From assembly GCA_028715395.1 (NCBI GenBank), contig JAQURY010000001.1:1-54816 (forward strand): DNA of 54,816 bases, in the 5' to 3' direction. Under the pieces are notes generated by a model that did no database searches, was not told where the DNA came from, and saw only the letters and a list, made by a program, of their open reading frames with translations. Numbering within the stretch: the stretch's first letter is position 1; every line of letters starts with the position of its first letter. Positions 110-54,816 of the stretch are shown piece by piece. The translations under genes were made by a program, and so were the position numbers. Source of the DNA: Minisyncoccota bacterium (GTDB lineage: Bacteria; Patescibacteriota; Minisyncoccia; UBA6257; 02-FULL-45-10c).

Positions 110-505
110 ATGGAAGAGAAAGAGACCAAGAAGGAGCAGGAGAACATGGCTGCCGAAAGCGCCGCGGAAAACCGCGCTGCCGCCATTCTGGAAACGATAG
201 GGAGCGTGATCGGAAACAAAACAACGATCACCCACATCGTAATGGAACTGAGGCAGAGCGACTGGGATGGCAAGCGTCTCGAGCTTCTGAACACATGCCC
301 GTTCGTTTTCAAGCTCTCTGACGTCAATTCCAAGTGGCTTGTCGGCGCGGCCAAGATCGTTTGGGAGAGCTGCGAGAAGAAGAATCTGAAGCCGGAAATC
401 GTGGAAATAAAACACAGCGCAAACCACGAAACGGCGACAGAGATAGCTCTCAACGAGGGCGATCCCAACACCTACAAGGCCATCCAGATCACGATCGAGA
501 AATAA
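110..505 (+). CDS. hypothetical protein, GC-rich cassette A (131 aa from ATG 110; ORF track starts at GTG 101)
   Basis: Open frame in a locally GC-rich stretch. GGAGAGGTG SD-like motif at 95-103 lies about 7 nt before ATG 110. A strong hairpin terminator follows. No family recognised. Confidence 0.55.
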   Translation: MEEKETKKEQENMAAESAAENRAAAILETIGSVIGNKTTITHIVMELRQSDWDGKRLELLNTCPFVFKLSDVNSKWLVGAAKIVWESCEKKNLKPEIVEIKHSANHETATEIALNEGDPNTYKAIQITIEK

Positions 506-629: not shown

Positions 630-1013
630 CTACTCGCCGCTGCAGGCCATTGCCAGCTCTCCCATTTCTTTTTGTACTAGCTTCCTTGTTTCGAAACTGA
701 CACGCTTGCTTATTTTTCTGAAATTGTTGTGGCAGCAGCCGCACTCAATAAGGTTGCACACCCCAAATTCGCATTTGGTAGTGTAGCGGCCATTGGGCAG
801 CAATTCCCGTAAGTTGCAGTCGGGTATTTCCACGATCAGCCTTACAAAGATGTCTTTGGGTCCGGAACTCGTCATGATTTCCTTTCTTGTCATGGCCAAG
901 TCCTTGAACCTTCCGGACTTTTTGAATCTCTTGATGATCGTTGCCTTTTTTCTTGCCTTTACGATGCGGTGCTCGCCACTCTTGAAAATTACGCTGAAAA
1001 ATTTTGTGGTCAT
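630..1013 (-). CDS. hypothetical basic, Cys-rich protein, GC-rich cassette A
   Basis: 127-aa ORF with GGGGGT SD-like motif 7 nt upstream of the ATG. TTGACT-N17-TAAAAT promoter-like element upstream on the minus strand. Cys cluster CEFGVCNLIECGCCH. No family recognised. Confidence 0.5.
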   Translation of the reverse strand: MTTKFFSVIFKSGEHRIVKARKKATIIKRFKKSGRFKDLAMTRKEIMTSSGPKDIFVRLIVEIPDCNLRELLPNGRYTTKCEFGVCNLIECGCCHNNFRKISKRVSFETRKLVQKEMGELAMACSGE

Positions 1014-3449: not shown

Positions 3450-4784
3450 ATGGAAAACTTGATGGATAAAATCGTTTCACTCGCCAAAAGGCGGGGTTTT
3501 ATTTTCCCCGGATCGGAAATATACGGGGGATTCGCCAATTCCTGGGATTATGGACCGCTTGGAGTTGAATTGAAAAACAACATTAAAAACGAATGGTGGA
3601 AAATGTTCGTCCATCAGAGAACGGACGTGGTTGGCGTTGATACCTCGTTAATAATGAATCCCAAAGTCTGGGAGGCCAGCGGCCATCTGAAAGAGTTTTC
3701 CGACCCGCTTACCGAATGCAAAGAATGCCACCATCGTTTCCGCGCCGAAGGCGAAACCAAGCAGATTTTTTGCCCTTCCTGCGGAAGCAAAAATCTTACT
3801 GAGGCAACCCAGTTTAATCTGATGTTTAAAACTTTTATCGGGCCGGCGGAAGACAAAGCCAACATTGCTTACTTCAGGCCTGAAACGGCGCAGGGGCAAT
3901 TTGTGGATTTCAAAAACATTTTGGACAGCTCCCACAGGAAATTGCCTTTCGGAATCGCCCAGATGGGCAAGGCGTTCAGGAACGAAATTACTCCCGGAAA
4001 TTATATTTTCCGGACACGCGAGTTTGAACAAATGGAAATAGAATATTTTATTCCCGCGCCAAAAAAAGACAAAGAGTGGGAAGAATATTTTGACATGTGG
4101 CTGGACGAAATGAAGAGATGGCTTAAGCATTTGGGAATAAATTCAAAACATCTCCATTTTCACGATATTCCCGACGGCGAAAGGGCCCATTATTCGAAAA
4201 GAACGGTGGACATTGAATATGATTATCCGTTTGGCCAGAAGGAGCTTTATGGCTTGGCTTACCGTACCGATTTTGATTTGAAAAATCATATGACGAAAAG
4301 CGGACAGGATTTGCAATATACCGATCCGGAAACCAATGAAAAATATCTGCCGCATGTTATCGAGCCGACTTGGGGAGTGGACAGGTCATTGCTTGTCGCC
4401 ATGCTTGACGCATACCACGAAGAAGATGCTCCGACTGCGAAAGAAGGCGAAAAGGAAGCGAGAGTCGTTATGAAATTCCCGAAATGGCTGGCGCCTGTAA
4501 AAGTGGCGGTATTGCCGCTTTCCAAAAAAGAGGAATTGAGCAAGGTTGCCAAAAAGCTTTATAAAAATTTGGCGGAAGATTTTATTTGCGAATACGACGA
4601 GACCCAGAGCATCGGAAAAAGATATCGCCGCCAAGACGAAATCGGAACGCCTTATTGCGTGACTGTTGATTTTGAAAGTTTGGAAGATAAAGCGGTAACC
4701 GTCCGCGACCGCGACACGATGAAACAGGACAGGATTAAAATCGAAGAACTGGCTGATTATCTGAAAGAAAATCTGAAGAATTAA
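3450..4784 (+). CDS. glyQS: glycine--tRNA ligase (dimeric GlyQS type)
   Basis: 444 aa. N-terminus RGFIFPGSEIYGGFANSWDYGPLG, class II motifs and a C-terminal anticodon-binding region are typical of bacterial/archaeal-type GlyRS. Confidence 0.93.
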   Translation: MENLMDKIVSLAKRRGFIFPGSEIYGGFANSWDYGPLGVELKNNIKNEWWKMFVHQRTDVVGVDTSLIMNPKVWEASGHLKEFSDPLTECKECHHRFRAEGETKQIFCPSCGSKNLTEATQFNLMFKTFIGPAEDKANIAYFRPETAQGQFVDFKNILDSSHRKLPFGIAQMGKAFRNEITPGNYIFRTREFEQMEIEYFIPAPKKDKEWEEYFDMWLDEMKRWLKHLGINSKHLHFHDIPDGERAHYSKRTVDIEYDYPFGQKELYGLAYRTDFDLKNHMTKSGQDLQYTDPETNEKYLPHVIEPTWGVDRSLLVAMLDAYHEEDAPTAKEGEKEARVVMKFPKWLAPVKVAVLPLSKKEELSKVAKKLYKNLAEDFICEYDETQSIGKRYRRQDEIGTPYCVTVDFESLEDKAVTVRDRDTMKQDRIKIEELADYLKENLKN

Positions 4785-7459: not shown

Positions 7460-8476
7460 ATGGAAAAAGATCAACTGGAAATAAGTTGGGGTAGTTTGTG
7501 GAGAATAGCGGTGATGCTCGGATTAGTCACCTTTTTTTATTTTGTAAGCAATATAATCATTGGCATAATTTTTGCCATAGTTATTTCTTCTGCGCTTGAT
7601 CCGATAGTAAATTTTTTGGAAAAGAAAAAATTTCCGCGCGTGCTGGGAACTCTCTTGATTTTTTTGCTTACCATTGCTTTGTTTTCCCTGTTGCTTTACA
7701 TCGTAGTCCCGATAGCTTTGTCGGAATTGAATACTTTGCTGGAAAATTTAAGCGATATGCAATCTTCGATTTTCGGTCTTAAAGATCTTTCCGGAGTCGT
7801 AAAGCTTCTTAATAGCGATATTACCAGAATTACCAATCTTTTGTTCAGCGGCAGCGTTTCGCTTTCCGATGTGGTGGGCGGGCTTCTTGGCAACTTAACG
7901 ATTGTTTTTTCTGTTTTTATCTTGTCTTTTTATCTTACAGTTGACAGAGACGGTGTTGAAAAATTCTTACGTGCCATTTTGCCGCCGAGATTTGAGGATC
8001 AGGTTTTGGATGTTTATTTCAGGACTCGCGCCAAAATAGGAAAGTGGCTGCAAGGCCAGATTTTCTTGAGCGCTACCGTCGGTTTTGGTGTTTTTCTTGG
8101 TCTTACGCTTTTAGGCGTCAAATACAGTTTAGTTTTGGCAATTTTGGCCGGTCTTTTGGAAATCGTTCCCTTTGTCGGCCCGATTATCAGTGGTTCGCTG
8201 GCTATTCTTATTGCTCTTCCGCAATCGCTTACTACGGCGATTTATGTTTTGATTCTTTTTATCATTATTCAGCAAACGGAAAATTATGTTTTGGTTCCGA
8301 CATTTATGCGCTTGACCACAAGCTTGCATCCGGCTGTCATAATTATCGCGCTTTTGATCGGTGGGCAGTTTTTGGGAGTTATCGGGCTTATTTTGGCGGT
8401 TCCGCTTGCCGTGCTGGCGCAGGAAATCATAAACAATTGGTCTGATTTCAAGTCAAAACGCAAAGTTTTGATTTAA
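7460..8476 (+). CDS. AI-2E family transporter (PerM/UPF0118)
   Basis: 338 aa and polytopic. Conserved C-terminal half (LLEIVPFVGPIISG ... AVPLAVL) is typical of the AI-2E family. Confidence 0.8.
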   Translation: MEKDQLEISWGSLWRIAVMLGLVTFFYFVSNIIIGIIFAIVISSALDPIVNFLEKKKFPRVLGTLLIFLLTIALFSLLLYIVVPIALSELNTLLENLSDMQSSIFGLKDLSGVVKLLNSDITRITNLLFSGSVSLSDVVGGLLGNLTIVFSVFILSFYLTVDRDGVEKFLRAILPPRFEDQVLDVYFRTRAKIGKWLQGQIFLSATVGFGVFLGLTLLGVKYSLVLAILAGLLEIVPFVGPIISGSLAILIALPQSLTTAIYVLILFIIIQQTENYVLVPTFMRLTTSLHPAVIIIALLIGGQFLGVIGLILAVPLAVLAQEIINNWSDFKSKRKVLI

Positions 8477-16854: not shown

Positions 16855-17421
16855 TCAGTGTGTCTGCGAGTTTCCTCGCGTCTTTCCTTTTCCGAATTGC
16901 CACTCGATGTAAACGAGCGGGATGAAGGGTGCTATCGTTTTCAGCGAGCCGAGAGAACTGTTCGTCCTTTCGTCTGAGCTGTAATTCGAAGGCAGTCCGT
17001 CATCGTCGTTTCCGTCGTCGTTGGTGTCTGTGGGGAATGGGTTATTCGCGATGATGGAATCGGCTGTTGCCGCTCCTGCCGCGAACGCGACTACGTTTGA
17101 AAGTATCTTCGCCCATTTCTCCCACTGGGATTCCTGGTACTTGTCCTTGGCGTTGATGTCGGGCTTGTTCGCCTTTATGGCGATAAGCGAGCCACCTCCG
17201 CAAAGTCCTGCGCCGATGCACAGGTATTGTACCGGAGCGTCGGGCTGGATTGTCATCCTGAGTCCCGCGCCTGCCATGAACATCCCGAGCATGGACGGAA
17301 CCATCCTGTAACCGGTCGGCTCCTTCTTCACGGTCAGGTCGATTTCCTGCGCGTGAAGCGCGGGAACCAGCGTTGCTATGAATGAAACTACGACCAGCAA
17401 AACAAGCATTTTCTTGTTCAT
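16855..17421 (-). CDS. hypothetical secreted protein, GC-rich cassette B
   Basis: Sec-type signal MNKKMLVLLVVVSFIATLVPALHA|QE. GGAG SD 5 nt upstream of the ATG. TTTACA-N17-TATATT with a TG extension upstream. Gly/Ala-rich hydrophobic core and an Asp-rich segment. No family recognised. Confidence 0.5.
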   Translation of the reverse strand: MNKKMLVLLVVVSFIATLVPALHAQEIDLTVKKEPTGYRMVPSMLGMFMAGAGLRMTIQPDAPVQYLCIGAGLCGGGSLIAIKANKPDINAKDKYQESQWEKWAKILSNVVAFAAGAATADSIIANNPFPTDTNDDGNDDDGLPSNYSSDERTNSSLGSLKTIAPFIPLVYIEWQFGKGKTRGNSQTH

Positions 17422-17632: not shown

Positions 17633-18328
17633 ATGGAGGAACAGGGAGCAAAGGCAGCGAAGAAAACGAACGTCTGGATTTTCGTTGGCGTGGCTGTCGC
17701 CATTTTGGCAATAGCTGCGTTTGTCGCGATGAAATATATCGCGCCGAAAACACCGGCGGTGAAGCAAGAGACAGTTGCGATCAGTTCCGCTCCGGCAAGC
17801 GTAGCCGTAGCCAAATCAACGGCGCCGGCTGTATCGGCTAAGGTGAAGCCGCAGCCGAAAAAGAAAGCCGCGCCGCAGGAAGCCGTGGCAGCGAAGCCGG
17901 AGGTAAAGCCAAAAGCCGAACCGAAAGCCGAACCGCCCAAGGAAACTGCAAAAGCTCCGGCCAAGCCCGAGAACATGATTTTTGAAAAAATGAACGATCA
18001 GGTTGCCAGAGCCAAGAGCAAACTGACTGCGGAAGAAATTCAGCGCTGGTTATGCTGGATGTTCAAAATTCCCGACAGCCAGAAAGACGCCAAGGTTTCG
18101 CTCGGATGGATAAGAGAACAAAACGGAATCTGGGGCGCGAAGCTTATGTATGACGAATCCGGCATGGCGGCGAAATTCCCGCAAAAGCAGAAGGCCAAAG
18201 ATTTTTTGATTGAATATAACACGGCTTTCAGCGAAAAGCAGGACGAAGATTTCGACAAATTCGTCGAAACAGTGCCCGGAAAAGCTGCGGGAGACGTGTC
18301 CATGGTAGCGGCAATGGAGAAAAAATAG
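17633..18328 (+). CDS. hypothetical membrane-anchored protein with Pro/Ala/Lys-rich linker, GC-rich cassette B
   Basis: AGGAGA SD 6-7 nt upstream of the ATG. N-terminal TM WIFVGVAVAILAIAAFVAM. Low-complexity PAK-rich stretch followed by a ~110-aa C-terminal domain. No family recognised. Confidence 0.5.
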   Translation: MEEQGAKAAKKTNVWIFVGVAVAILAIAAFVAMKYIAPKTPAVKQETVAISSAPASVAVAKSTAPAVSAKVKPQPKKKAAPQEAVAAKPEVKPKAEPKAEPPKETAKAPAKPENMIFEKMNDQVARAKSKLTAEEIQRWLCWMFKIPDSQKDAKVSLGWIREQNGIWGAKLMYDESGMAAKFPQKQKAKDFLIEYNTAFSEKQDEDFDKFVETVPGKAAGDVSMVAAMEKK

Positions 18329-18351
18329 GAGTTCTCCGATAAAGAAAATAA

Positions 18352-18388
18352 AATCGCCTAAAACAGAATATGTTCTAGGCGATTTTTT
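18352..18388. terminator. bidirectional terminator between convergent 17633-18328 and htrA
   Basis: 9-bp stem aatcgccta / taggcgatt with a 15-nt loop, followed by a T-run. It overlaps the htrA stop codon. Confidence 0.6.
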
Positions 18389-19436
18389 ATTTCTTTTCGG
18401 CCAATACCACTTTTATTTCCAGCTGTTTTTTGCCTCGGAGGACTTTTAAGCTTAAAATGTCTCCCGGCGCCATGTTCTCCAGGAAATCCTGGATTGTTTT
18501 CTGGGGAGTCAGGCATTCTCCGTTGCATTCGGTAATAACATCTCCTTCTTTGATGCCGAATTTTTCCGCCGGAGTGTTCGGGACGACTCCTTGGACTTTC
18601 GGATCTTTGGCTCCGGCAACCAGCGCGCCGTGGTCAACGGGTAATTTCATTTTTTCCTGGAAGTTTTTATCTATGTTTATGTAAAGCAATCCAAGTAGTG
18701 GCCGTTTTACCTTGCCGTATTTTTTAACATCATCCAAATCCCGCTTGGCGGAATTTATTGGAATCGCAAAACCTATATTTTGCGCTCCGAAAACCACTGC
18801 CGCATTGATAGCAACAACTTTTCCATTCTCATCTATCAGCGGCCCGCCGGAGTTTCCCGGATTGATTGCCGCGTCGGTCTGAATTAATCCGCGGAGTTCT
18901 TGAATCGGGGAGTTCATATCTGCTTGAGCCGCGACCGCCCGCGATAAACCGGAAACGATTCCGCGCGAAACTGTATTTTGAAAAATTCCCAGCGCGTTCC
19001 CGATAGCATAAACAGTTTGTCCTAAATCCAAATGAGATGAGTCTCCCAGATTTATTGTGGGAAGTCCATTTGCCTGTATTTTTAAAATAGCCACATCATT
19101 TATCGGATCAAGGGCCGTTACCTCGGCTTTATATTTTTTCCCGTCGGCTGTAACCACGGCATACTCCGATTTTTTGTCCGCAATAACGTGTTTGTTGGTA
19201 AGGATAAGTCCGTTGGAATCAACAATAAAACCCGAGCCGCCTCCAACTTGAATCATGCCGTGGATATCGGCGTGCTGTTTAAGATTCTTTTTTAATTCGG
19301 GCAAGCCAAACGGCAAAAGCGGAATCATTTCCGCCGGTATTTCTTTTTCCACATTTTCCAGGCTTTTTGATATGACAATTGCGACTATTGCCGGAAGAAC
19401 GCCTTTAATTGTTTCGGTAACATTTTTTTCCATCAT
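18387..19436 (-). CDS. htrA: HtrA/DegP family serine protease with PDZ domain
   Basis: Trypsin-like triad context (LTNKHV, DVAILKI, GNSGGPL) plus a C-terminal PDZ-like region. Confidence 0.9.
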   Translation of the reverse strand: MMEKNVTETIKGVLPAIVAIVISKSLENVEKEIPAEMIPLLPFGLPELKKNLKQHADIHGMIQVGGGSGFIVDSNGLILTNKHVIADKKSEYAVVTADGKKYKAEVTALDPINDVAILKIQANGLPTINLGDSSHLDLGQTVYAIGNALGIFQNTVSRGIVSGLSRAVAAQADMNSPIQELRGLIQTDAAINPGNSGGPLIDENGKVVAINAAVVFGAQNIGFAIPINSAKRDLDDVKKYGKVKRPLLGLLYINIDKNFQEKMKLPVDHGALVAGAKDPKVQGVVPNTPAEKFGIKEGDVITECNGECLTPQKTIQDFLENMAPGDILSLKVLRGKKQLEIKVVLAEKK

Positions 19437-20208: not shown

Positions 20209-20279
20209 GGGCCTATAGTATAGCGGTAGAACGCCTCCATGGCATGGAGGAGGTAGGAGTTCGACTCTCCTTAGGTCCA
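20209..20279 (+). tRNA. tRNA-Ala (GGC)
   Basis: Acceptor gggccta/taggtcc with the G3:U70 identity pair. Anticodon arm cctcc-atGGCat-ggagg. T arm aggag-ttcgact-ctcct. One D-stem mismatch. Confidence 0.8.
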
Positions 20280-20292
20280 CAGAGAAATTAAA

Positions 20293-20352: not shown

Positions 20353-20374
20353 AACGCTGAAAAAGCGTTTTTTA
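20353..20374 (+). promoter_or_regulatory. terminator-like hairpin in the 5' leader of the cassette C gene (possible attenuator)
   Basis: aacgct gaaaa agcgtt followed by ttttt. It sits immediately downstream of the predicted transcription start and about 60 nt before the ATG. Confidence 0.4.
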
Positions 20375-20434
20375 GTTAAAGATCCTTTACATATAGAGGT
20401 GGAATAGGGCGTCTTACTTAAATGGAGGGTGAGA

Positions 20435-21592
20435 ATGGAAACAAAGTACAGCGAGATCGTGATTCCGAAAGAACCGAGTTTGCTGGTGGTTGTCATCGTA
20501 TGGCTTCTGAGCAGATTCGGGGAAAATAAATTTCCTGGAATCAAGAAGGCCAGGGTTCTGTCCTGCGAGAACATGAGCAAGAACGTTTCTCTCCAGGAAT
20601 ACGAACTGAGAGGCACGGTGTTCGCCGGCTTTGCGGGAGGATGTCTCGAAAAATTCTCCTTCAACATGGCCGCAAACATATGGCGCGTGTGCGCTGCGTG
20701 TTTCTTGCGGGAGCTGGAAGTCGTCAACTCCGTTTTGAGCGAAATGCTCAGGTTTGTTTTAAAAGAACCCAACGGATCGGCGACCCTTCTCACCTTCAGC
20801 GGCGAACTGGAAAGCCAGCTGAAGAAAAATCCTGATCACCCCGAAAAGGCGGTCGAATGGATGATGGCCGTGCTGGACGCGAGGTATCAGTCAGAGCTGG
20901 ATGTCATCGAAGAAAAGAGGCAGAAGGCCCTGGAGAAGATGAAGGCGAAGGAGCTGGCGGAACTGGAGAAAAAGAAGGCGGAAGCAAGAAGGAGGCTCGC
21001 GAAAGGAGAGTTCAAAACCATCAACGGTGCCAAAGGAAAAAAGCTGACGATGCTCAGCATTTATTCCAATGGCGATCTCTCCGGCGACGACGTTTGCAAA
21101 TATGCCCTTATCTTGGGCATAGACGTGGTCGTTATGGCGAAGCGTTCGGGATATCCCGAGATTTACCTGAGCGAAAGCTCTGGTATGAAGCTGTGGGATA
21201 CCGCGCGGGTACTCCGGTACTTCGAGCGGAAATCCAAGCCCATCGCGGACCCGAAAGAGCTTGCGGCCACAGGAGTGGTTGCGGAATGGTTCTTGCATGA
21301 ATCCGGGCTGATACTGCTGAACAGAGGGAACAGAACCAGCAGTTCTTTCGAACGGATAAAGAACCTCGTCGAGACGGTCCTGGATCAGGACTCTTTCGAT
21401 CCGCAGTGCGCCGAGGAATGCAAAAAGGGAAATTGCGCGGCGAAAAACAGAAAACACTGCGCGATGTTTCCCTGGGGGCTCTGGCGCTGCCGCTACATGA
21501 GATGGGCGATGTGCCACAGAGCTGAGGCCAAGCAGAACCAGGACCAAAAGGAAGCTCGGGAGGAGCTTCAGAAAGAAACGGTTTTGGCTTAA
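20435..21592 (+). CDS. hypothetical protein, GC-rich cassette C (385 aa; central coiled coil, C-terminal Cys/Trp/Arg-rich tail)
   Basis: GGAGGG SD 6 nt before ATG 20435 (track start is GTG 20429). Charged heptad-like stretch EEKRQKALEKMKAKELAELEKKKAEARRRL. C-terminus CAEECKKGNCAAKNRKHCAMFPWGLWRCRYMRWAMCH. No family recognised. Confidence 0.55.
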   Translation: METKYSEIVIPKEPSLLVVVIVWLLSRFGENKFPGIKKARVLSCENMSKNVSLQEYELRGTVFAGFAGGCLEKFSFNMAANIWRVCAACFLRELEVVNSVLSEMLRFVLKEPNGSATLLTFSGELESQLKKNPDHPEKAVEWMMAVLDARYQSELDVIEEKRQKALEKMKAKELAELEKKKAEARRRLAKGEFKTINGAKGKKLTMLSIYSNGDLSGDDVCKYALILGIDVVVMAKRSGYPEIYLSESSGMKLWDTARVLRYFERKSKPIADPKELAATGVVAEWFLHESGLILLNRGNRTSSSFERIKNLVETVLDQDSFDPQCAEECKKGNCAAKNRKHCAMFPWGLWRCRYMRWAMCHRAEAKQNQDQKEAREELQKETVLA

Positions 21593-21673
21593 TAGCAAAA
21601 ATCCAAAAAGGAGAATCTGCCTATGTCCAACAATGGCTCTATAAAAAAATAGGGTTCGAGCCAACCCTAACGA

Positions 21674-21727
21674 CCCCCATTGGAATGTCGGCCACAAGCT
21701 GACAATCCAATGGGGGGTTTCTTTTTA
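21674..21727 (+). terminator. compound hairpin terminator after the cassette C gene
   Basis: 11-bp outer stem cccccattgga / tccaatggggg, inner stem gtcggc / gctgac, then gtttcttttt. Confidence 0.7.
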
Positions 21728-21774: not shown

Positions 21775-21864
21775 GGTGGGGTGTGTGAGTGGTTTAAACA
21801 GACAGTCTTGAAAACTGTTATGCCTGAAAGGGCATCGTGAGTTCGAATCTCACCCCCACCGCCA
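21775..21864 (+). tRNA. tRNA-Ser (TGA), CCA encoded
   Basis: Acceptor ggtgggg/ccccacc, anticodon arm acagt-cTTGAaa-actgt, 18-nt variable arm, T arm gtgag-ttcgaat-ctcac, 3' gCCA. Confidence 0.9.
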
Positions 21865-30519: not shown

Positions 30520-31596
30520 ATGGCGGATAATTTTACCGAAAAATTAAACAATCTTTTATTGACGACAGCGAAGCAAAATGCTTCCGATTTGCATATTTCG
30601 GCAGGAAGGAGACCGACTATCAGAATTGACGGCGTTCTTGTCGGCTTGCAGAAAGAACCTATTTTAACTGCCGACGAAGTCCAGGGTTTGGTTTTTGCGC
30701 TTTTAAATCCGATGCAAAAAGAGCAATTTTTAAAAGATAAACAGCTGGATTTTTCTTTTGCGTTTGAAGACAAAGCCAGATTTCGCGTAAACGTTTATTT
30801 TCAGCGCGGCCTTCCGGCGGCGGCTTTGCGTCTTATTCCGGCGCAGATCAGAACCGTGGAAGAATTAAGTTTACCGCCAATTCTGCACGATCTCGCCAAA
30901 CTTTCCCAGGGATTCGTTTTGGTTGTGGGGCCGGCCGGACACGGAAAATCAACTACTCTTGCGTCAATTTTGGATGAAATCAACCATCAGAGAACGGAGC
31001 ATATAATCACCATAGAAGATCCGGTTGAGTATTTATTTTCGCAGGACAGAAGCATTATTTCGCAAAGAGAAGTTTTGGCGGACACGTTGTCTTTTCATGA
31101 CGCCTTAAGGACTCTTTTGCGCCAAGACCCTGACGTTGTCATGATCGGTGAAATGCGCGATTCGGAATCAATCGCCACAGCCATGACCGCTTCCGAAACC
31201 GGCCACTTGGTATTTTCAACTTTGCACACCAATTCGGCTTCGCAAACAATCGACAGAATTATCGACAGTTTTCCGCCCAATCAGCAGGGACAGATTATTT
31301 CCCAGTTGTCAGCCACCTTGGTAGCAATAATTTCTCAGAGGTTGATTCCGCGCATAGACGGCGGCAGAGTTCCGGCCTGTGAAATTATGATAGTCAATTC
31401 TGCGGTTAGGAATTTAATCCGTGAAAGAAAATCTTATCAGATTGATTTGGTTATCGAAACCAGCTCGCAAGAAGGAATGTCCACTCTTAACCGCGCCCTC
31501 GTTGATTTGGTAAGAAAAAAACAAATTTCTTTGGAAAATGCGGAATTATATTCTTTAAATCCCTCAGAGCTCAGAATTTTATTGGAAAGAGGGTAA
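30520..31596 (+). CDS. pilT: twitching motility (retraction) ATPase PilT
   Basis: ASDLHISAG, Walker A GPAGHGKSTTLAS and HIITIEDPVEY. The 358-aa length fits PilT. Confidence 0.9.
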   Translation: MADNFTEKLNNLLLTTAKQNASDLHISAGRRPTIRIDGVLVGLQKEPILTADEVQGLVFALLNPMQKEQFLKDKQLDFSFAFEDKARFRVNVYFQRGLPAAALRLIPAQIRTVEELSLPPILHDLAKLSQGFVLVVGPAGHGKSTTLASILDEINHQRTEHIITIEDPVEYLFSQDRSIISQREVLADTLSFHDALRTLLRQDPDVVMIGEMRDSESIATAMTASETGHLVFSTLHTNSASQTIDRIIDSFPPNQQGQIISQLSATLVAIISQRLIPRIDGGRVPACEIMIVNSAVRNLIRERKSYQIDLVIETSSQEGMSTLNRALVDLVRKKQISLENAELYSLNPSELRILLERG

Positions 31597-40695: not shown

Positions 40696-42003
40696 CTATC
40701 TCTCGTATGTAAATGGATTAATAAATGATTCACTTGTGCCGCAGACTCCGGGTTGTCGCTCGGCTTTGATATGTGTATCATCAACTAACTGCAATAAAAA
40801 TTTAGAACCATTGTTACCGCTATTAATATTCTCTTCTCTTTGATAGCAGTAAATCTCACCGTCAGCAGTAACTTCTGAAAACTCCCGATTAATTGACCCA
40901 TTATGAGTCGGGGCAAAAATAAAACTCGTCACATTAGCCCAAGACATTTTTGCCATTTCCGGCTGGATATTATCGTGAATAAGAACTAGCGCATCATTAT
41001 CATTTATGCCTACTTGCTTGATTGGATTTTTGAACCAGTTACCCGAAGCAGTACCGGCAACGTCCCACATTACTTTGCCACAAACCGGCGGAATTATACG
41101 ACGAATAAATGTTGAATATTGTCCTAAAGGTTTATCAACTGCACCAAATTTTTCCTCATACTTTGCCTTTAGCTCCGGAATATAATAATCGGCAAAGCAG
41201 GCAGTATGAACAGTATCTTTATAATACCGGTCGGGATTAATAAATCCGAGAGCTGGCTTGTTGTAGTCATACATGCCTATATCAAAACCCGAATTTGATT
41301 TATCGCTTTGGCCGCTGAAATAACCGATTATTTCTCCGGCTGAAATTTTGATTTTTTGAATATCCGGATGACAGGTTACATAATATGTTGGAATTCCATT
41401 TTGTATACCATAATCCATTTTTTGATCATTATTACAATTGGAATTTTCATCTCCGATGGCTTTTTTAAGTCTATCTGACAATGTCTTTAGGTGGATAAAA
41501 GCCAAGTTTAAACCCCTGCAAGGGGCAAAGTTCAACTGATAATCAGCAGCAGTAATTGCGCCGGTGTCTTTGTTGTGCATTTGTTTATTTTCAACCCAGA
41601 TTAAAGTTAAATTGCCTGGGGCATAAACTGTCACATTTTCCTCATAACCATTATCCGTAGGGTAAACATGATCAACCGGAACAACATGGCCGGTTTCGTT
41701 GGAATTACCCAGAGGAGTAATATAGTCAGGTTTATCACCATCCATAAATGGTTTAGTAAAAAGCGTTGACGTATCCACAGGGCAAATAGGCAGATCTTTA
41801 GCTAAAGATATATTTTCTTCTTTTTTATTAGATGGGTCTTTGGACTCTTGCGTTGCCACATATTTTTCTTTATTAGACAAGTTCTTGGACTCTTGCATCT
41901 CAGTCTTATTCTTCTGCCAATAATAAACTCCTCCGCCGATAGCTAAAATAATAACTACTAACACAATTACTTTTAATGTAGAAAATCCTTTTTTGCTATT
42001 CAT
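40696..42003 (-). CDS. hypothetical exported protein with pilin-like N-terminal leader module
   Basis: N-terminus MNSKKG|FSTLKVIVLVVIILAIGGGVYYWQKNK is nearly identical to that of 44387-44956. The ~390-aa C-terminal domain is unrecognised, with a faint M23-like pattern ISAGEIIGYFSG but no HxH. Confidence 0.6.
   Translation of the reverse strand: MNSKKGFSTLKVIVLVVIILAIGGGVYYWQKNKTEMQESKNLSNKEKYVATQESKDPSNKKEENISLAKDLPICPVDTSTLFTKPFMDGDKPDYITPLGNSNETGHVVPVDHVYPTDNGYEENVTVYAPGNLTLIWVENKQMHNKDTGAITAADYQLNFAPCRGLNLAFIHLKTLSDRLKKAIGDENSNCNNDQKMDYGIQNGIPTYYVTCHPDIQKIKISAGEIIGYFSGQSDKSNSGFDIGMYDYNKPALGFINPDRYYKDTVHTACFADYYIPELKAKYEEKFGAVDKPLGQYSTFIRRIIPPVCGKVMWDVAGTASGNWFKNPIKQVGINDNDALVLIHDNIQPEMAKMSWANVTSFIFAPTHNGSINREFSEVTADGEIYCYQREENINSGNNGSKFLLQLVDDTHIKAERQPGVCGTSESFINPFTYER
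41905..42003 (-). repeat. leader-module repeat, copy 1 (5' end of 40696-42003)
   Basis: 99 nt. By hand alignment 80 of 99 positions are identical to 44387-44485, in inverted orientation. Confidence 0.7.
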
Positions 42004-43554: not shown

Positions 43555-43938
43555 ATGAGCAAATCATATACAGCGCGAATGAACTCTCTTCTTTTGGTGT
43601 CATTTTTACTTGCGGTGGCGGTAGTTCTTTTCGGCGGGCTAAAAGAGAAAGAAACGATAGAAATCATCGGCTTGGTCGTGACATTGTCGGTGACAATGGC
43701 CGGCTTCGGCTTAGTCGCTTTTCAGATCGGACACAGCACGGACGAACTTAAAAAAGATTTTATAGAATCAAGCATAATAATGATTTTAAGCACTATTTCC
43801 GGATTTTTCTTTTTGGTATACCCGAATAAATCATTTTTTGGCTTGAATTTCGGAGAAGTAAGCATTTTCCTATTTTTCTGGTCTTTTATTTTATTTTTGA
43901 TAATTCTTATAGACAGAAGGTTTGATATTCTAAAATAG
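43555..43938 (+). CDS. hypothetical membrane protein
   Basis: 127 aa with four predicted hydrophobic helices. No family recognised. Confidence 0.45.
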   Translation: MSKSYTARMNSLLLVSFLLAVAVVLFGGLKEKETIEIIGLVVTLSVTMAGFGLVAFQIGHSTDELKKDFIESSIIMILSTISGFFFLVYPNKSFFGLNFGEVSIFLFFWSFILFLIILIDRRFDILK

Positions 43939-45580: not shown

Positions 45581-45609
45581 TTGAAAATTAAAGGGGTTTA
45601 TTGTATAAT
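45581..45609 (+). promoter_or_regulatory. near-consensus sigma70 promoter for tRNA-fMet
   Basis: TTGAAA (45581-45586), 17-nt spacer, TATAAT (45604-45609). The mature tRNA 5' end lies at 45615. Confidence 0.6.
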
Positions 45610-45614
45610 ACATT

Positions 45615-45687
45615 CGCGGGATGGAGCAGTGGTTAGCTCGTCTGGCTCATAACCAGAAGGTCGTTGGTTCAAGTCCAACTCCCGCAA
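45615..45687 (+). tRNA. initiator tRNA-fMet (CAT)
   Basis: C1:A72 mismatch and anticodon loop cTCATaa. Strong overall similarity to E. coli tRNA-fMet (CGCGGG.UGGAGCAG...GCUCAUAACC...AGGUCG..GGUUCAA.UCC...CCCGCAA). Confidence 0.9.
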
Positions 45688-45700
45688 CCGCGAAAAATGA

Positions 45701-45727
45701 AAAAGCAGCTCTTTGAGCTGTTTTTTC
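45701..45727 (+). terminator. terminator after tRNA-fMet
   Basis: cagctc ttt gagctg stem with A/T extension and tttttt. Confidence 0.7.
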
Positions 45728-45797
45728 ATTTGACAATAAAGATAAGTTATTTTAATCTATTTTGGCACGTTTAAAATTTATAATATAGGAGGACGGA

Positions 45798-46394
45798 ATG
45801 CCACCAGTAGCAGGCGAGAAAAGAGTCCCCAGGAATTACCACGCTGTAATCAGCAGAGAGATCGAAGGGAGGGCGGGAAAAAAATTCACGTACCGCGACA
45901 TAGTCTTGGCGACAGGACTGCCGGCGGGAGTTGTTTGTCGTTATCTATCGCTGTATTACAAAAAGGGGTATTTCCATCGTGAAAAGAAACAGGTAAAAAA
46001 TACGAGGCCCCTTATTGACGGCAACAGAGGGAATTTTCCTTTCAGATGGAAAACTCCCCGCAGTTGCGTGCGCTCTTTTTATTGGCAGAGAAAGCCCCTG
46101 CCGAAAATGGCGCGAGTAGGAGATGTCGTAGACGGCGTCTGGAAAGTTTTACAGGACGCCAGTCGTGTCGGCGCGTTTATTTCCGGAAAGGAGATCTGGG
46201 AAATAACTTGCGAATGTAAACGCAAGAGCATTATAAACGCGATGTCGCGGCTGTATCGGCTGGGATATCTTGACAGACAGAGCTCAAAATACAGATTGAA
46301 AAAGTGGTTTGAAGGGGAGAAGCGGCCGACGATGGTAAGTATTCCGAAGTATGAAATACTGCCTTCGGTCAGATATGCCAATGTCGCCTCCTAG
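45798..46394 (+). CDS. hypothetical protein with two winged-helix-like segments, GC-rich cassette D
   Basis: AGGAGG SD 7 nt upstream of the ATG. Two HTH-like stretches (FTYRDIVLATGLPAGVVCRYLSLYYKKGYFHRE and ISGKEIWEITCECKRKSIINAMSRLYRLGYLDRQ). The fold call is by pattern only. Confidence 0.5.
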   Translation: MPPVAGEKRVPRNYHAVISREIEGRAGKKFTYRDIVLATGLPAGVVCRYLSLYYKKGYFHREKKQVKNTRPLIDGNRGNFPFRWKTPRSCVRSFYWQRKPLPKMARVGDVVDGVWKVLQDASRVGAFISGKEIWEITCECKRKSIINAMSRLYRLGYLDRQSSKYRLKKWFEGEKRPTMVSIPKYEILPSVRYANVAS

Positions 46395-46408
46395 CGATTT
46401 AAAAATTC

Positions 46409-46445
46409 ATCCCCGCATTGTTCAACGCAACGCGGGGATTTTTTA
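46409..46445 (+). terminator. terminator after the first cassette D gene
   Basis: 8-bp GC-rich stem atccccgc / gcggggat plus an inner 3 bp, then a T-run. Confidence 0.65.
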
Positions 46446-46556
46446 TCCCGAAAAAGTTATCAACATATTGATTTATTTTCCAGTTGCCCTATTATTTTAT
46501 TTACAAGTTTTGTTTTTTTGAAAATAAAATATTTCAAATTAAAGGAGGGCGCCGGA

Positions 46557-46949
46557 ATGGACGATGGCAGTAGCGTCGGGGTTCGCGGAGCCCCAAAGGG
46601 AAAGTATAATCCTTCGGGGCAAAAAGTCGCTTACAAAGGCAGTGCGCTTAACGTGGTGTGGGAAATTTTTCAGACAATGGACAGGCCGTTGTTTGAAGAA
46701 GACGTTGCCCACTTCGCGGATATTTTTTCCGAAAAGAAATTCAGCGCAAGCAGAATCAAGGAGAAAATTTCTTTTTTGGAAGGAAGCGGCTGTTTTGAGC
46801 GGATCGGCGAGAAATATATTCTTAAACGGGAGTTTTTGAACAAAGGAATTCCCTTTGTGAAAAAGGAGGAAATAGAAAAATTGATGCAAGGAGAGCCGGC
46901 AAAGCAGGAAGAAAAACAGAAAGGCGGCTTTGTGTCGGCTTTACAATAA
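46557..46949 (+). CDS. hypothetical protein with one winged-helix-like segment, GC-rich cassette D
   Basis: GGAGGG SD 7 nt before ATG 46557 (track start is TTG 46518). SALNVVWEIFQTMDRPLFEEDVAHFADI...ISFLEGSGCFERIGEKYILK resembles a wHTH. Confidence 0.45.
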   Translation: MDDGSSVGVRGAPKGKYNPSGQKVAYKGSALNVVWEIFQTMDRPLFEEDVAHFADIFSEKKFSASRIKEKISFLEGSGCFERIGEKYILKREFLNKGIPFVKKEEIEKLMQGEPAKQEEKQKGGFVSALQ

Positions 46950-46956
46950 GCTTTCA

Positions 46957-46986
46957 GGCCCGGATTTAAAAAGTCCAGGCTTTTTG
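46957..46986 (+). terminator. terminator after the second cassette D gene
   Basis: Imperfect stem ggcccgga / tccaggc followed by ttttt. Confidence 0.45.
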
Positions 46987-47032
46987 TTTCTTGTCAAAAA
47001 TCCGATAATTCACTATTATTTTATATATAAAT

Positions 47033-47105
47033 GGCGGCGTAGCTCAGTGGTTAGAGCGATCGCTTCATAAGCGATAGGTCGGTAGTTCGATCCTACCCGC
47101 CGCTA
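47033..47105 (+). tRNA. tRNA with CAT anticodon: elongator tRNA-Met or tRNA-Ile2 (lysidine type)
   Basis: Acceptor ggcggcg/cgccgct, anticodon arm atcgc-ttCATaa-gcgat, T arm ggtag-ttcgatc-ctacc. It is not initiator-like, since 1:72 is paired. Met versus Ile2 cannot be decided by eye. Confidence 0.85.
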
Positions 47106-47109
47106 CTAG

Positions 47110-47793
47110 ATGACGGAAAAAATCAAAAATCATCCTTTTATAACAATTATATTGGTTATCGCGATAGCGGCTGGAGCTTATTTTTTATTAAATAAGGAAA
47201 AGACGTATTCTTATAGTTTTTCGGACTTCAGTTCCAGCACTGTTTTTTCCGGCGTTAAAAAAATTGGAGAAAAAGGGGCGGATTTTGTTTCAGAAAGCAT
47301 TTCGAAAGCCGCCAATGTTGTTGCGGATAAAACCGGAGAAATTGTTTCCGGAGCGGTTACAGCCGTCAAGCAGGAAGCTTTTAAGATTTTGAAAAATACG
47401 GTCAATAAGGAATTGGATAATCTTGGGGAAGATCTAAAAGTTGGCGATACAAATAAGCAGTTGCCGATGGAGGAGCCGTCGGCTGCCGGCCAGGCAAGCG
47501 CTATTAATATAATAGCGGGTTCGCCGTCTAACAATATAAATTCCCATCCCGAAATTAAATTTACCGTAAAAACCGGAGTTTTATCTTATTTTACAATTCA
47601 AAATGTTGAGGGAGAAACAATTATATATGATGTGAACTGGAAAGACGGCGCAACGGATAAAAATTCATTAAGCAAGGGCAGCATGGTCACTTTATCCCAT
47701 AGTTGGAGCAAAGAAGGCGATTTTTTGGTAGAATTTAATATAACGGCTTCGGGCGTGGAAAAAAATTATATTATACCCGTTACCGTATTTTAG
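47110..47793 (+). CDS. hypothetical membrane-anchored protein
   Basis: 227 aa with an N-terminal TM (FITIILVIAIAAGAYFLL) and a C-terminal beta-rich ~90 aa. No family recognised. Confidence 0.45.
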   Translation: MTEKIKNHPFITIILVIAIAAGAYFLLNKEKTYSYSFSDFSSSTVFSGVKKIGEKGADFVSESISKAANVVADKTGEIVSGAVTAVKQEAFKILKNTVNKELDNLGEDLKVGDTNKQLPMEEPSAAGQASAINIIAGSPSNNINSHPEIKFTVKTGVLSYFTIQNVEGETIIYDVNWKDGATDKNSLSKGSMVTLSHSWSKEGDFLVEFNITASGVEKNYIIPVTVF

Positions 47794-52390: not shown

Positions 52391-53143
52391 ATGAAAGAAA
52401 CAATCTTAGCCGATTTAAACCAGGAAAGCAGCGGAGAAAATTCCGCCGATTTGGCGATTTTGGAGGAAATGATGAAAGCCGGACTTTCCGGCGGACGCGG
52501 GAAAGCGAAAACTCATCCCCGGATGAAGCCTTTTATTTTTACAACCCGCAACGGAATGGAGGTTATTGATTTGCACCAGACATTGCAGTTTTTGAATAAT
52601 GCCCTTGAATTTATCAAGGAAAAATTAACCGATAAGAAAAATCTTTTATTGGTTGGAACGACTCCGGCTTCCAAGGCCGCGGTTGAAGAGTTTGCCAAAA
52701 AGCACGGCTGCGCGTATGTAACCGAAAGGTGGCTTGGCGGAATTCTTACGAATTACAAAACTCTTTCCAAAAGAATCAGCCATTTCAAGAAATTAAAAGA
52801 AGGGCGTTCTTCGGGAAAGTTTGAAAAATACACCAAAAAAGAAAGATTGGATATAGACAGAGAAATAGAAAAGCTTCATACCAAATTCAGCGGAGTGGAA
52901 AATATGGAAAAGCTCCCTGAGATTGTTTTTGTTATCGATGCTTCCCATCATATGACGGCCGTCAAAGAAGCGAAGATATTGAAGATTCCGGTAGTGGCGA
53001 TGATAAGCACGGATATTAATCCGGAAATTATTGATTATCCGATTCCTTCCAATGACCGCAGCAAGTCGGCAATTGAATGGGTTTTGGGAAAACTGGAAGA
53101 AGTGATTGGTAAAATAAAAGAAAAAAAGATAGAATCTAAATAA
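52391..53143 (+). CDS. rpsB: 30S ribosomal protein S2 (with N-terminal extension)
   Basis: PRMKPFIFTTRNGMEVIDL, LLVGT, YVTERWLGGILTN and IPVVAMISTD match S2. Confidence 0.9.
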   Translation: MKETILADLNQESSGENSADLAILEEMMKAGLSGGRGKAKTHPRMKPFIFTTRNGMEVIDLHQTLQFLNNALEFIKEKLTDKKNLLLVGTTPASKAAVEEFAKKHGCAYVTERWLGGILTNYKTLSKRISHFKKLKEGRSSGKFEKYTKKERLDIDREIEKLHTKFSGVENMEKLPEIVFVIDASHHMTAVKEAKILKIPVVAMISTDINPEIIDYPIPSNDRSKSAIEWVLGKLEEVIGKIKEKKIESK

Positions 53144-54765: not shown

Positions 54766-54816
54766 ATGGAATTGAATATCCGGAAAAACAAGACCGAGGG
54801 ATTGATTCAGCTTATG
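54766..54816 (+). CDS. partial ORF running off the window (MELNIRKNKTEGLIQLM...)
   Basis: AGGAGG SD 6 nt before the ATG. Only 17 codons are visible. By the common rpmG-tRNA-Trp-secE-nusG synteny it could be secE, but the sequence is too short to say. Confidence 0.3.
   Translation, partial: MELNIRKNKTEGLIQLM

Follow-up and report, generated by a model that had tools for sequence, protein, structure and literature searches.

Introduction

Gene-turnover hotspots that are free of mobile elements have been described previously; they are enriched in naturally transformable bacteria, and their contents turn over by recombination in the core genes on either side (Oliveira et al. 2017, PMC5635113). 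Here we describe a locus of this type in a metagenome-assembled genome (MAG) of Candidatus Pacebacteria/Paceibacterota, which belongs to the Parcubacteria in the candidate phyla radiation (CPR). The analysed DNA (the window, 54,816 nucleotides) starts at the first annotated gene of the 81-kb contig JAQURY010000001.1. It contains four small islets, A to D, whose seven genes carry a Shine-Dalgarno (SD) sequence and have a raised G+C content at third codon positions (GC3); the element of main concern is islet D, a pair of genes, D1 and D2, in the gap between two tRNA(CAT) genes. We found that the locus behaves as a mobile-element-free transfer hotspot filled with autonomous units that resemble phage morons, and that the islets are accessory genes in such a hotspot and not a new molecular system. 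With moderate confidence, we regard D as an old, vertically inherited module in this hotspot, and the islets as having been acquired serially from a GC-richer gene pool that uses SD sequences. The CPR, or Patescibacteria, have small genomes with many unannotated genes, and little is known of how they gain genes and start translation.

As in the hotspots of Oliveira et al., an interval between conserved genes (here the tRNA genes) holds different cargo in different relatives and no integrase or transposase, and homologous recombination at the conserved flanks is plausible in a genome that encodes DNA-uptake genes. Unlike those hotspots, which were defined within species from many genomes, the present locus is seen through species-level relatives. 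In addition, its islet cargo is marked by an SD and a leader against a host that appears leaderless, a trait that does not figure in the portion of PMC5635113 drawn on here.

Other known systems resemble the islets in part. Integron cassettes are promoterless and come with attC sites and IntI, whereas every islet gene has its own promoter, and neither attC-like repeated elements nor an IntI integrase was found in the islets or the window. In the case of tRNA-targeting integrative islands, the variable occupancy among relatives is shared, but an integrase and an attL/attR duplication of the 3' part of the tRNA gene were not found at this locus. Phage morons, as reportedly described by Hendrix and colleagues, are autonomous promoter-gene-terminator units of deviant composition. 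Each islet gene is likewise self-contained, with its own promoter and terminator and a base composition unlike that of its neighbours. However, D is flanked by trx, the ferredoxin-thioredoxin reductase (FTR) gene, pheST, and tRNA genes instead of a prophage, has no phage homologues, and is stable in two species.

Two further comparisons concern translation and regulation. In the SD-blind Bacteroidia, a minority of SD-bearing genes, such as rpsU and prfB, is conserved and follows an autoregulatory logic in which ribosomes lacking bS21 are involved (PMC9976891, PMC7797042, PMC13000453). The window is similar in that an SD-poor genome keeps a few strong, conserved SD sites, but the islet genes are unrelated, lineage-specific ORFans with deviant codons. 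Winged-helix repressors of the BlaI/MecI/MarR type share with D1 the winged-helix domains, a weak MecI match in the second domain, and a conserved palindrome at the adjoining promoter. In contrast to these dimeric single-domain proteins, D1 has a tandem architecture within 198 amino acid residues and no Pfam family, and its DNA binding is a prediction.

Anatomy of islet D

Islet D is bounded exactly by two tRNA genes and holds two genes, an arrangement given in the preliminary description and confirmed here by ARAGORN, Rfam, and the NCBI start codons. D1 and D2 each form a transcription unit of their own with an SD-led leader. From left to right, the features are as follows.

45615-45689, plus strand: tRNA-Met(CAT), the left border of islet D (ARAGORN; Rfam tRNA, 66.6 bits), with the promoter TTGAAA-17-TATAAT at 45581-45609.
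45695-45731, strand unassigned: terminator hairpin 3' of tRNA-fMet, with a 17-bp stem and a U/A run on either side (-21.4 kcal/mol, z -6.5).
45730-45758, plus strand: probable D1 promoter TTGACA-17-TAATCT, read by eye and not flagged by the consensus scan; its counterpart at the matching position in the sister genome L003 is TTGACT-17-TAATAT.
45787-45792, plus strand: D1 SD, AGGAGG, 5 nt upstream of the ATG (anti-SD duplex -10.2 kcal/mol).
45798-46394, plus strand: D1 gene, PHP03_00275, an open reading frame (ORF) of 198 aa with an identical start at NCBI.
46409-46446, plus strand: D1 intrinsic terminator, a GC-rich stem plus U6 (-18.0 kcal/mol, z -4.8).
46452-46480, strand unassigned: conserved non-coding element AAAAAGTTATCAACATATTGATTTATTTT / AAAAAGTTATYAACATATTGATTTATTT between the D1 terminator and the D2 promoter, 29/30 identical in L003 and unique in the window.
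46459-46472, strand unassigned: palindrome ATCAAcataTTGAT within the conserved element, overlapping the D2 -35.
46468-46495, plus strand: D2 promoter TTGATT-16-TATTAT, found by the scan, with a leader of ~55-60 nt; the L003 counterpart is TTGATT-16-TATATT.
46543-46548, plus strand: D2 SD, AGGAGG, 8 nt upstream of the ATG (anti-SD duplex -12.1 kcal/mol).
46557-46949, plus strand: D2 gene, PHP03_00280, an ORF of 130 aa with an identical start at NCBI.
46956-46988, plus strand: weak D2 terminator, an imperfect stem plus a U-run (-11.7 kcal/mol, z -1.8).
47033-47106, plus strand: second tRNA(CAT), elongator Met or Ile2, the right border (ARAGORN, Rfam), with the promoter TTGTCA-17-TATTAT at 46991-47019, which is kept in L003.

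The left tRNA-Met(CAT) carries a C1xA72 mismatch, read from the sequence, which makes it look like the initiator type. The D1 leader is predicted to span ~30-35 nt. A perfect SD 7 nt from each ATG had been proposed earlier; AGGAGG does precede both genes, but at 5 nt in D1 and 8 nt in D2. Similarly, the proposal that each gene possesses its own promoter and GC-rich terminator holds well for the D2 promoter, which the scan found, and for the strong D1 terminator, and less well for the D1 promoter, which was read by eye, and the weak D2 terminator. The -10 region of the D2 promoter (46489-46506) and that of the promoter of the downstream tRNA(CAT) gene (47013-47030) both carry CTATTATTTTAT(T/A)TA; by sequence, the promoter of the accessory gene D2 thus appears similar to that of the neighbouring tRNA(CAT) gene.

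The block 45690-47032 has a GC content of 0.428, which lies at the 68th percentile among 1.34-kb windows, and the overall GC of the window is 0.42. An earlier hand count of G+C in the first 100 nt, 53 for D1 against 36 for pilB, was exact. The GC3 z-scores of D1 (2.6) and D2 (1.8) are nevertheless the weakest among the islet genes, so D is not the clearest copy of the islets that it had been taken for; B and C are the clearest.

The tRNA-Met gap in related genomes

We compared 80 syntenic loci from GTDB species representatives, which were fetched via PheS (0.7 kb downstream of the right-hand tRNA). The empty-site comparison that the preliminary description had called for gave a clear outcome: the gap between the two tRNA(CAT) genes measures 9-85 bp and is gene-free in L029, L013, L020, and L024. 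It measures 202 bp in L007 and 0.7-2.8 kb in the closest relatives, L003 to L006. The cargo is a 569-aa secreted protein in L004 (869-2578), an 846-aa surface protein in L005 (6590-9130), and a 193-aa protein in L006 (7960-8541), which is superoxide-dismutase-like by eye only. These three genes are unrelated to D, and none is SD-led or GC3-rich. In the Paceibacteria, inter-tRNA spacers appear to serve as slots for gene turnover without an integrase.

The closest relative, L003 (JAQUPE010000001.1, a 146-kb contig from an independent MAG of another study), has a PheS 75% identical to that of the window. We found orthologues of both D1 and D2 in the same tRNA-Met gap of this sister genome, with the order kept and with the flanking trx, FTR, and pheS genes also alike. 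In L003, D1 is matched at 41% identity (BLASTP E=2e-43) and D2 at 58% identity across its core (E=6e-32). The native hypothetical gene 47110-47793, taken as a yardstick, is itself only 42% identical between the window and L003, which makes the divergence of D1 and D2 look compatible with vertical descent. The label of ORFan given to the islet genes therefore stands with respect to Pfam, PHROGs, and PADLOC but not for D1 and D2, which have orthologues in the sister species.

In the comparison with L003, the proportion of nonsynonymous differences (pN) is well below that of synonymous differences (pS), with a pN of 0.36 and a pS of 0.84 for D1 and a pN of 0.39 and a pS of 0.68 for D2, which indicates that both are real protein-coding genes under purifying selection. 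The pS values range from 0.60 to 0.84 in islet and flanking genes alike, that is, synonymous sites are saturated. Because both D genes occupy the same site in a sister species at this degree of saturation, D is not recent; it predates the split from the sister species and is ancestral at least at the genus level. Occurrence in the same sequence context in relatives had been named beforehand as an outcome at odds with acquired islands, and for D this is what L003 presents.

These comparisons bear on the possibility that the GC-rich stretches are structured non-coding RNAs and the ORFs mere by-products of their GC content. The raised GC, the long ORFs on both strands, and the location next to tRNA genes are what such RNAs would bring. 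However, the Rfam scan of the whole window gave only tRNAs above the gathering threshold, and the islets match no known structured RNA. The low pN relative to pS in D1 and D2 is that of proteins, the rise in GC is greatest at codon position 3 (GC1/GC2/GC3 0.51/0.40/0.63), every sense ORF is headed by an SD plus an ATG, and the D1 model folds into two winged-helix domains. For D, the non-coding explanation is effectively refuted, and we assign it hardly any probability.

The regulatory signals of D are also kept in L003. The SD of the D1 orthologue, GGGGAGGG, ends 3 nt before the ATG (GGAGG core 4 nt), and that of the D2 orthologue, AAGGAGG, lies 6 nt before the ATG. The promoters of both orthologues have the same architecture as in the window, and the terminators stand in the same places with different sequences, one after the D1 orthologue (-14.5) and a strong one after the D2 orthologue (-16.5). 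The GC3 of the orthologues is 0.59 for D1 and 0.46 for D2 against a background of about 0.35, and their codon shift is of the same kind. Hence four SD cores (two genes in two lineages) persist at a working spacing in leaders that are otherwise unalignable. As these cores survive despite synonymous saturation, the SD sites are probably functional and the ribosome of this lineage can probably use them; by informal reckoning, neutral retention is very unlikely. Part of the Parcubacteria has been reported to lack the anti-SD motif CCTCCT (PMC9297842), and no 16S rRNA 3' end was found in the window or in any fetched locus. SD pairing would thus still be used by a ribosome whose own genes have given the SD up, which bears on the anti-SD loss reported in that study.

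L003 contains an extra 87-aa GIY-YIG gene (7557-7820, homing-endonuclease-like) between tRNA-fMet and the D1 orthologue, with a GC of 0.29 and a leaderless-looking start; the same gap has thus taken up a further insertion. Elsewhere in L003, an SD-led gene with a GC3 of 0.63 (18313-18780, minus strand) lies near its own tRNA-Trp. An htrA-anchored metagenome scan for B and C in relatives returned loci of at most 62% identity with poor synteny and no homologues of A, B, or C.

Two classes of genes in the window

The seven islet genes were compared with 50 background genes of the window, an SD being accepted at an anti-SD duplex energy of -6 kcal/mol or lower. An SD is present in all seven islet genes but in only 3/50 background genes (Fisher p=4.5e-7); these three sites are mis-spaced or lie inside hairpins, and none is properly spaced. 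The GC3 of the islet genes is 0.50-0.73 against 0.42 +/- 0.05 (maximum 0.51) in the background (Mann-Whitney p=7.6e-9), and the islet genes take the highest GC3 ranks. Formal statistics on composition and ribosome-binding sites thus uphold the contrast, drawn in the preliminary description, between SD-led islets and about 50 surrounding genes that do without an SD.

The codon usage of the islet genes is shifted to C-ending two-fold codons (NNC), AAG/GAG/CAG, and CTG. The A, B, and C genes have an NNC fraction of 0.76, against 0.42 in D1 plus D2 and 0.50 in the L003 orthologues of these two; the background is 0.30 here and 0.20 in the sister genome. Housekeeping genes, including those of S2, S16, L33, and EF-Ts, have no SD and show background codon usage. 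Translational selection for high expression was rejected as the cause of the NNC bias because the S16, S2, EF-Ts, and L33 genes have neither the codons nor the SD that it would give; the islet codon bias is therefore not a signature of high expression.

The two classes also differ in their promoters. In 18/51 native genes, a TATAAT-like -10 hexamer (often TTTTTGATATAAT) ends 4-12 nt from the start codon, which makes these genes look leaderless, and leaderless mRNAs seem to account for the expression of much of the core genome. Such close -10 hexamers are seen at 40696-42003 (minus strand), 43555-43938, 30520-31596, and 52391-53143, while the tRNA genes keep classical -35/-10 promoters. In the islet genes, by contrast, the promoters (-35/-10 or extended -10) lie 40-90 nt upstream, and the leaders measure about 30-90 nt. 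Promoter type, leader length, SD use, and codon usage therefore separate two classes of genes, in agreement with the earlier suggestion. The combined signature (SD, leader, -35 promoter, and NNC/G-ending codons) could serve to delimit accessory genes in CPR MAGs. What the upstream regions of the eight SD-led genes (the seven islet genes and one at the window end) have in common is only the SD (7/8) and a TTTGACAA -35 (5/8), and no operator common to the islet promoters was found when these regions were compared.

In 75 further Paceibacteria loci with a length of 10 kb or more, few strong SD sites occur, and GC3 outliers are 5-fold more frequent among the genes that bear such sites (10.5% vs 2.1%). 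Of the ten SD-led GC3-outlier genes found there, 8 or 9 have no Pfam family, and the single clear match is ThyX (L077, 12132-12788). ThyX is often horizontally transferred or phage-borne. When the islet proteins and ten comparable SD-led, GC3-rich proteins of other loci were compared all against all by BLAST, no relations emerged.

It could be argued from these data that the islet genes are native, namely a class of leadered, SD-dependent, GC3-rich genes kept by selection in a leaderless or SD-independent genome, perhaps for condition-specific translation or translation by a subpopulation of ribosomes. Although synonymous sites are saturated, both D orthologues keep their SD, terminators, promoter type, and raised GC3; the GC3 excess of D1 is bigger in the lower-GC sister genome, and the association of SD with GC3 recurs in the pooled Paceibacteria loci. 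Furthermore, regulatory minority genes with an SD are known from the SD-blind Bacteroidia cited above. However, just the SD and the -35 are common to the eight upstream regions; the proteins are unrelated ORFans of very narrow distribution and form no functionally coherent set; and the gap cargo of other relatives lacks both the SD and the raised GC3. The pooled association, which has ThyX among its members, is modest, the graded codon signature suits differing ages better than one selective regime, and the anti-SD motif is reportedly missing from part of the Parcubacteria (PMC9297842). We consider this explanation unlikely, though by no means negligible.

A related and rather improbable proposal is that two initiation regimes exist side by side, a leaderless or SD-less core and a selectively maintained, SD-dependent, lineage-specific class (the envelope and Cys-rich proteins and D1/D2), which would be gated by anti-SD availability or a ribosome sub-population and would have the tRNA spacers as its preferred home. 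If true, it would be the CPR counterpart to the bS21/anti-SD switch of the Bacteroidia.

Mobility genes, donor, and assembly

By Pfam, the long ORFs of the window, islet genes included, encode no integrase, transposase, reverse transcriptase, or phage structural or replication proteins. Across the four islets, a search for att-like direct repeats and terminal inverted repeats found none; what it returned were terminator hairpins and short, AT-rich repeats attributable to chance. Inspection had already pointed to a lack of mobility genes, terminal repeats, and phage structural genes, which is thereby borne out. In the tblastn search with the seven islet proteins as a joined query, no match was found in 50,697 phage records (INPHARED) or 72,556 plasmids, and IMG/VR viral contigs scanned with the D1 alignment, the D2 alignment, C, and B2 gave nothing. 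A phage, plasmid, or host donor, as once suggested, has thus not come to light in the phage, plasmid, and IMG/VR searches.

A mobile element (prophage, satellite, or tRNA-targeting island) that integrated and then decayed would offer another origin for D, with D1 and D2 as surviving repressor-type regulators similar to morons or immunity modules. Islet D abuts the 3' end of a tRNA gene, its autonomous promoter-gene-terminator units deviate in composition from the surroundings, and small winged-helix proteins commonly serve mobile elements as regulators. A weak match of the first D1 domain to phrog_6336 (E=1.4e-4), which we regard as noise, and the GIY-YIG gene in the same gap of the sister genome could be added. 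However, the locus has neither an integrase nor structural or replication genes, the tRNA end is not duplicated as an att site, and no homologue was found in the INPHARED phages, IMG/VR contigs, and plasmids. Two species keep the module stably and under purifying selection, and the GIY-YIG gene, being low in GC and leaderless, belongs to the native composition class. A mobile remnant is accordingly a decidedly improbable explanation.

The assembly was examined with Logan contigs of run SRR22315506. Contig L001 spans exactly 45639-47060, broken off within the tRNA(CAT) gene on each side; contig L002 ends at about 17476, inside the divergent B1/B2 promoter region, and joins B1 to its low-GC neighbours. 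Look-ups with the exact proteins returned no Logan contigs for A1, B2, and C. Such breaks are what one would see if GC-richer, SD-led segments of another organism had been joined to this genome via conserved tRNA sequences. Graph breaks at conserved tRNA k-mers are, however, expected in any metagenome, and the breaks and gaps suggest that coverage is low at the islets or that strains vary there. A chimera is excluded for D, because the independent MAG of another study has the D module in the same gap with the same trx, FTR, and pheS flanks, and for B1, because L002 links it directly to low-GC DNA. For the islets as a whole, we regard an artefact as very improbable.

A conserved element upstream of D2

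The element at 46452-46480 keeps 29/30 positions in L003, whereas in the same comparison both synonymous sites and the non-coding DNA around the element have reached saturation. Its palindrome, ATCAAcataTTGAT, is likely to be an operator at the D2 promoter. A scan of IMG/VR viral contigs with the conserved DNA motif found nothing. D1, D2, and this candidate operator form a small, directly testable regulatory module.

Structures of D1 and D2

D1 was modelled with AlphaFold2 from a three-sequence alignment at a mean predicted local distance difference test (pLDDT) score of 71. The model contains two winged-helix domains, formed by residues 12-63 plus 93-97 and by residues 107-167, each of which is an H-H-H-beta-beta unit. 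In a Foldseek search, the top matches are all winged-helix proteins of a generic tandem type (the SelB C-terminus, RPC62, kite proteins, and MarR), with E>=1.5e-3 and whole-chain template-modelling scores of at most 0.3. On the strength of this model, D1 is a tandem winged-helix protein. Its second domain has a weak MecI/BlaI match (E=0.006) in a profile search of PDB sequences, and Pfam gave no match at E<=0.1, so that curated families such as Penicillinase_R and MarR are not matched. ScpB or a kite protein was considered for D1 and dropped, since Pfam gave no match and Foldseek nothing specific; a plasmid Rep was dropped on the same grounds.

The D2 model, made from the single sequence, is of low confidence (pLDDT 52), with three core helices visible. 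The D2 core aligns with D1 residues 103-171 at 28% identity (BLASTP E=0.009), and for this reason D1 and D2 may be distant paralogues. The winged-helix segments read from the sequence at the outset are thus recovered twice in D1, while the one in D2 is only probable given the poor model and the weak similarity to D1.

An exhaustive HMMER search with D1 through 1.84 bn representatives returned D1 itself, the sister orthologue, and one 167-aa relative, three members in all. The 167-aa relative lies on a 1.4-kb metagenome contig and is likewise an autonomous promoter-gene-terminator unit. A new and very narrow winged-helix protein family is thus among the contents of the islets.

Origin of the islets

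We favour the reading of D as an old accessory module, with serial acquisition of the islets. D, A, B, C, and the gene after tRNA-Trp would have entered on separate occasions, from a gene pool that is richer in GC and uses SD sequences, into tRNA-flanking spacers and by integrase-free recombination; DNA uptake is plausible because the genome encodes type IV pili and ComFC. The oldest islet, D, would then have drifted partly towards the codon usage of the host. Purifying selection has probably kept the SD sites, and the reason may be that leadered, GC-richer mRNAs need them, whereas on native mRNAs translation would begin with neither leader nor SD. The two D proteins are most likely sequence-specific DNA-binding regulators; D1 would control D2, or there would be autoregulation, via ATCAAcataTTGAT.

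The NNC gradient from A, B, and C through D to the background fits acquisitions of different ages. If D had started like A, B, and C, its residual NNC excess would be about 0.26-0.54 of the original. The Nei-Gojobori estimate of synonymous substitutions per site (dS) between the two species is about 1.2-3, a lower bound owing to saturation, and a rough calculation of two-state relaxation at such dS predicts a residue of the same order, which fits. Repeated acquisition at tRNA hotspots, the simplest explanation offered at first, is thus supported by the variable gap and the codon gradient, and is qualified by D not being recent and by the donor not having been found.

Several points weigh against this reading. 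For D1, the GC3 excess amounts to +0.24 in the sister genome but only +0.12 here, which is not what simple amelioration would lead one to expect. Strong-SD genes are GC3-enriched across other Paceibacteria loci, which is equally compatible with a clade-wide SD-led minority class. Composition is the one feature that points to a foreign origin, as phage, plasmid, IMG/VR, PHROG, and PADLOC searches did not find the donor and the D1 family has three members in 1.84 bn representatives. The DNA binding of D1 and D2 and the operator role are predictions, and the sister comparison covers, among the four islets, the locus of D. The association with tRNA genes (2/4 islets plus the eighth gene) is statistically not compelling. 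A word-index protein search gave only self hits for D1, D2, and C; the resulting 'singleton' status of C and D2 is a weak negative, since the search missed the 58%-identical D2 orthologue (P0011, PHN74_00240) in the same database, and its negatives carry little weight for proteins that are short and evolve fast.

The islets had also been put forward as the best candidate in the window for an undescribed system. The seven proteins are, however, mutually unrelated apart from the weak similarity of D1 and D2, and the motifs common to their upstream regions are limited to the SD and the -35.

Native gene content of the window

The window contains 12 tRNA genes according to ARAGORN and Rfam. By Pfam, the remaining long ORFs (51 native genes, with the exception of rpmG) are solely housekeeping, type IV pilus, and envelope genes. 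Pfam assigns RecO, a class II aminoacyl-tRNA synthetase (3450-4784), MetS, LeuS, PheST, TatD, and Sua5, together with an M16 peptidase, HtrA, LemA, LigA, GatCA, TrmD, S16, S2, and EF-Ts, as well as thioredoxin and the catalytic subunit of ferredoxin-thioredoxin reductase. The type IV pilus cluster comprises PilM, PilN, PilB, PilT, PilC, pilins, and a prepilin peptidase, and a ComFC-like protein is also encoded. The rpmG gene (L33; 54391-54561), identified from its translation and not by Pfam, lies between tRNA-Thr and tRNA-Trp and has no SD and a low GC. At NCBI, the seven islet genes are the hypothetical proteins PHP03_00005, 00010, 00070, 00075, 00105, 00275, and 00280, whose start codons agree with those chosen here.

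Islets A, B, and C and the eighth gene

The SD-led genes outside islet D are listed below.

110-505, plus strand: A1, PHP03_00005, 131 aa, the first gene of the contig; SD AAAGGAGAGG; GC3 0.73; no Pfam, PHROG, or PADLOC match.
630-1013, minus strand: A2, 127 aa, Cys-rich; SD-like GGGGGT; GC3 0.62.
16855-17421, minus strand: B1, 188 aa, N-terminus resembling a signal peptide; SD AAAGGAGA; GC3 0.68; linked to its low-GC flank by Logan contig L002.
17633-18328, plus strand: B2, 231 aa, with an N-terminal hydrophobic, transmembrane-like segment followed by an Ala/Pro/Lys-rich linker; SD AAAGGAGA; GC3 0.59.
20435-21592, plus strand: islet C gene, 385 aa, with a coiled-coil region and a Cys-rich C-terminus; SD GGAGGGTGA; GC3 0.68.
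54767-54816, plus strand: start of the eighth SD-led gene, cut by the window end, just after tRNA-Trp; AGGAGG 6 nt before the ATG.

Pfam, PHROGs, and PADLOC gave nothing significant for the seven islet proteins; a low-complexity PADLOC match of B2 to PD-T4-6 was regarded as noise. Judged by sequence, B1 and B2 look like secreted or membrane-anchored proteins. The eighth gene realizes the possible fifth case that had been suspected after tRNA-Trp.

Three of the four islets had been thought to touch tRNA genes. Only C and D lie between tRNAs, C being bordered by tRNA-Ala (20209-20280) and tRNA-Ser (21775-21864); B is separated from tRNA-Ser by htrA, and A starts with the first annotated gene of the contig. 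The link between tRNA genes and islets is therefore suggestive and not significant.

Two small elements accompany the gene of islet C. A hairpin followed by U6 (CCAACGCTGAAAAAGCGTTTTTT) is located at 20353-20380 in its 5' leader, directly behind a TTGACT-17-TATATT promoter, and could be an attenuator or a second terminator of the upstream tRNA-Arg/tRNA-Ala unit. Between the stop codon of the gene and the terminator at 21674-21716, an SD-led mini-ORF of 9 codons (AAAGGAGaatctgcctATG...TAG, MSNNGSIKK) is present at 21609-21653.

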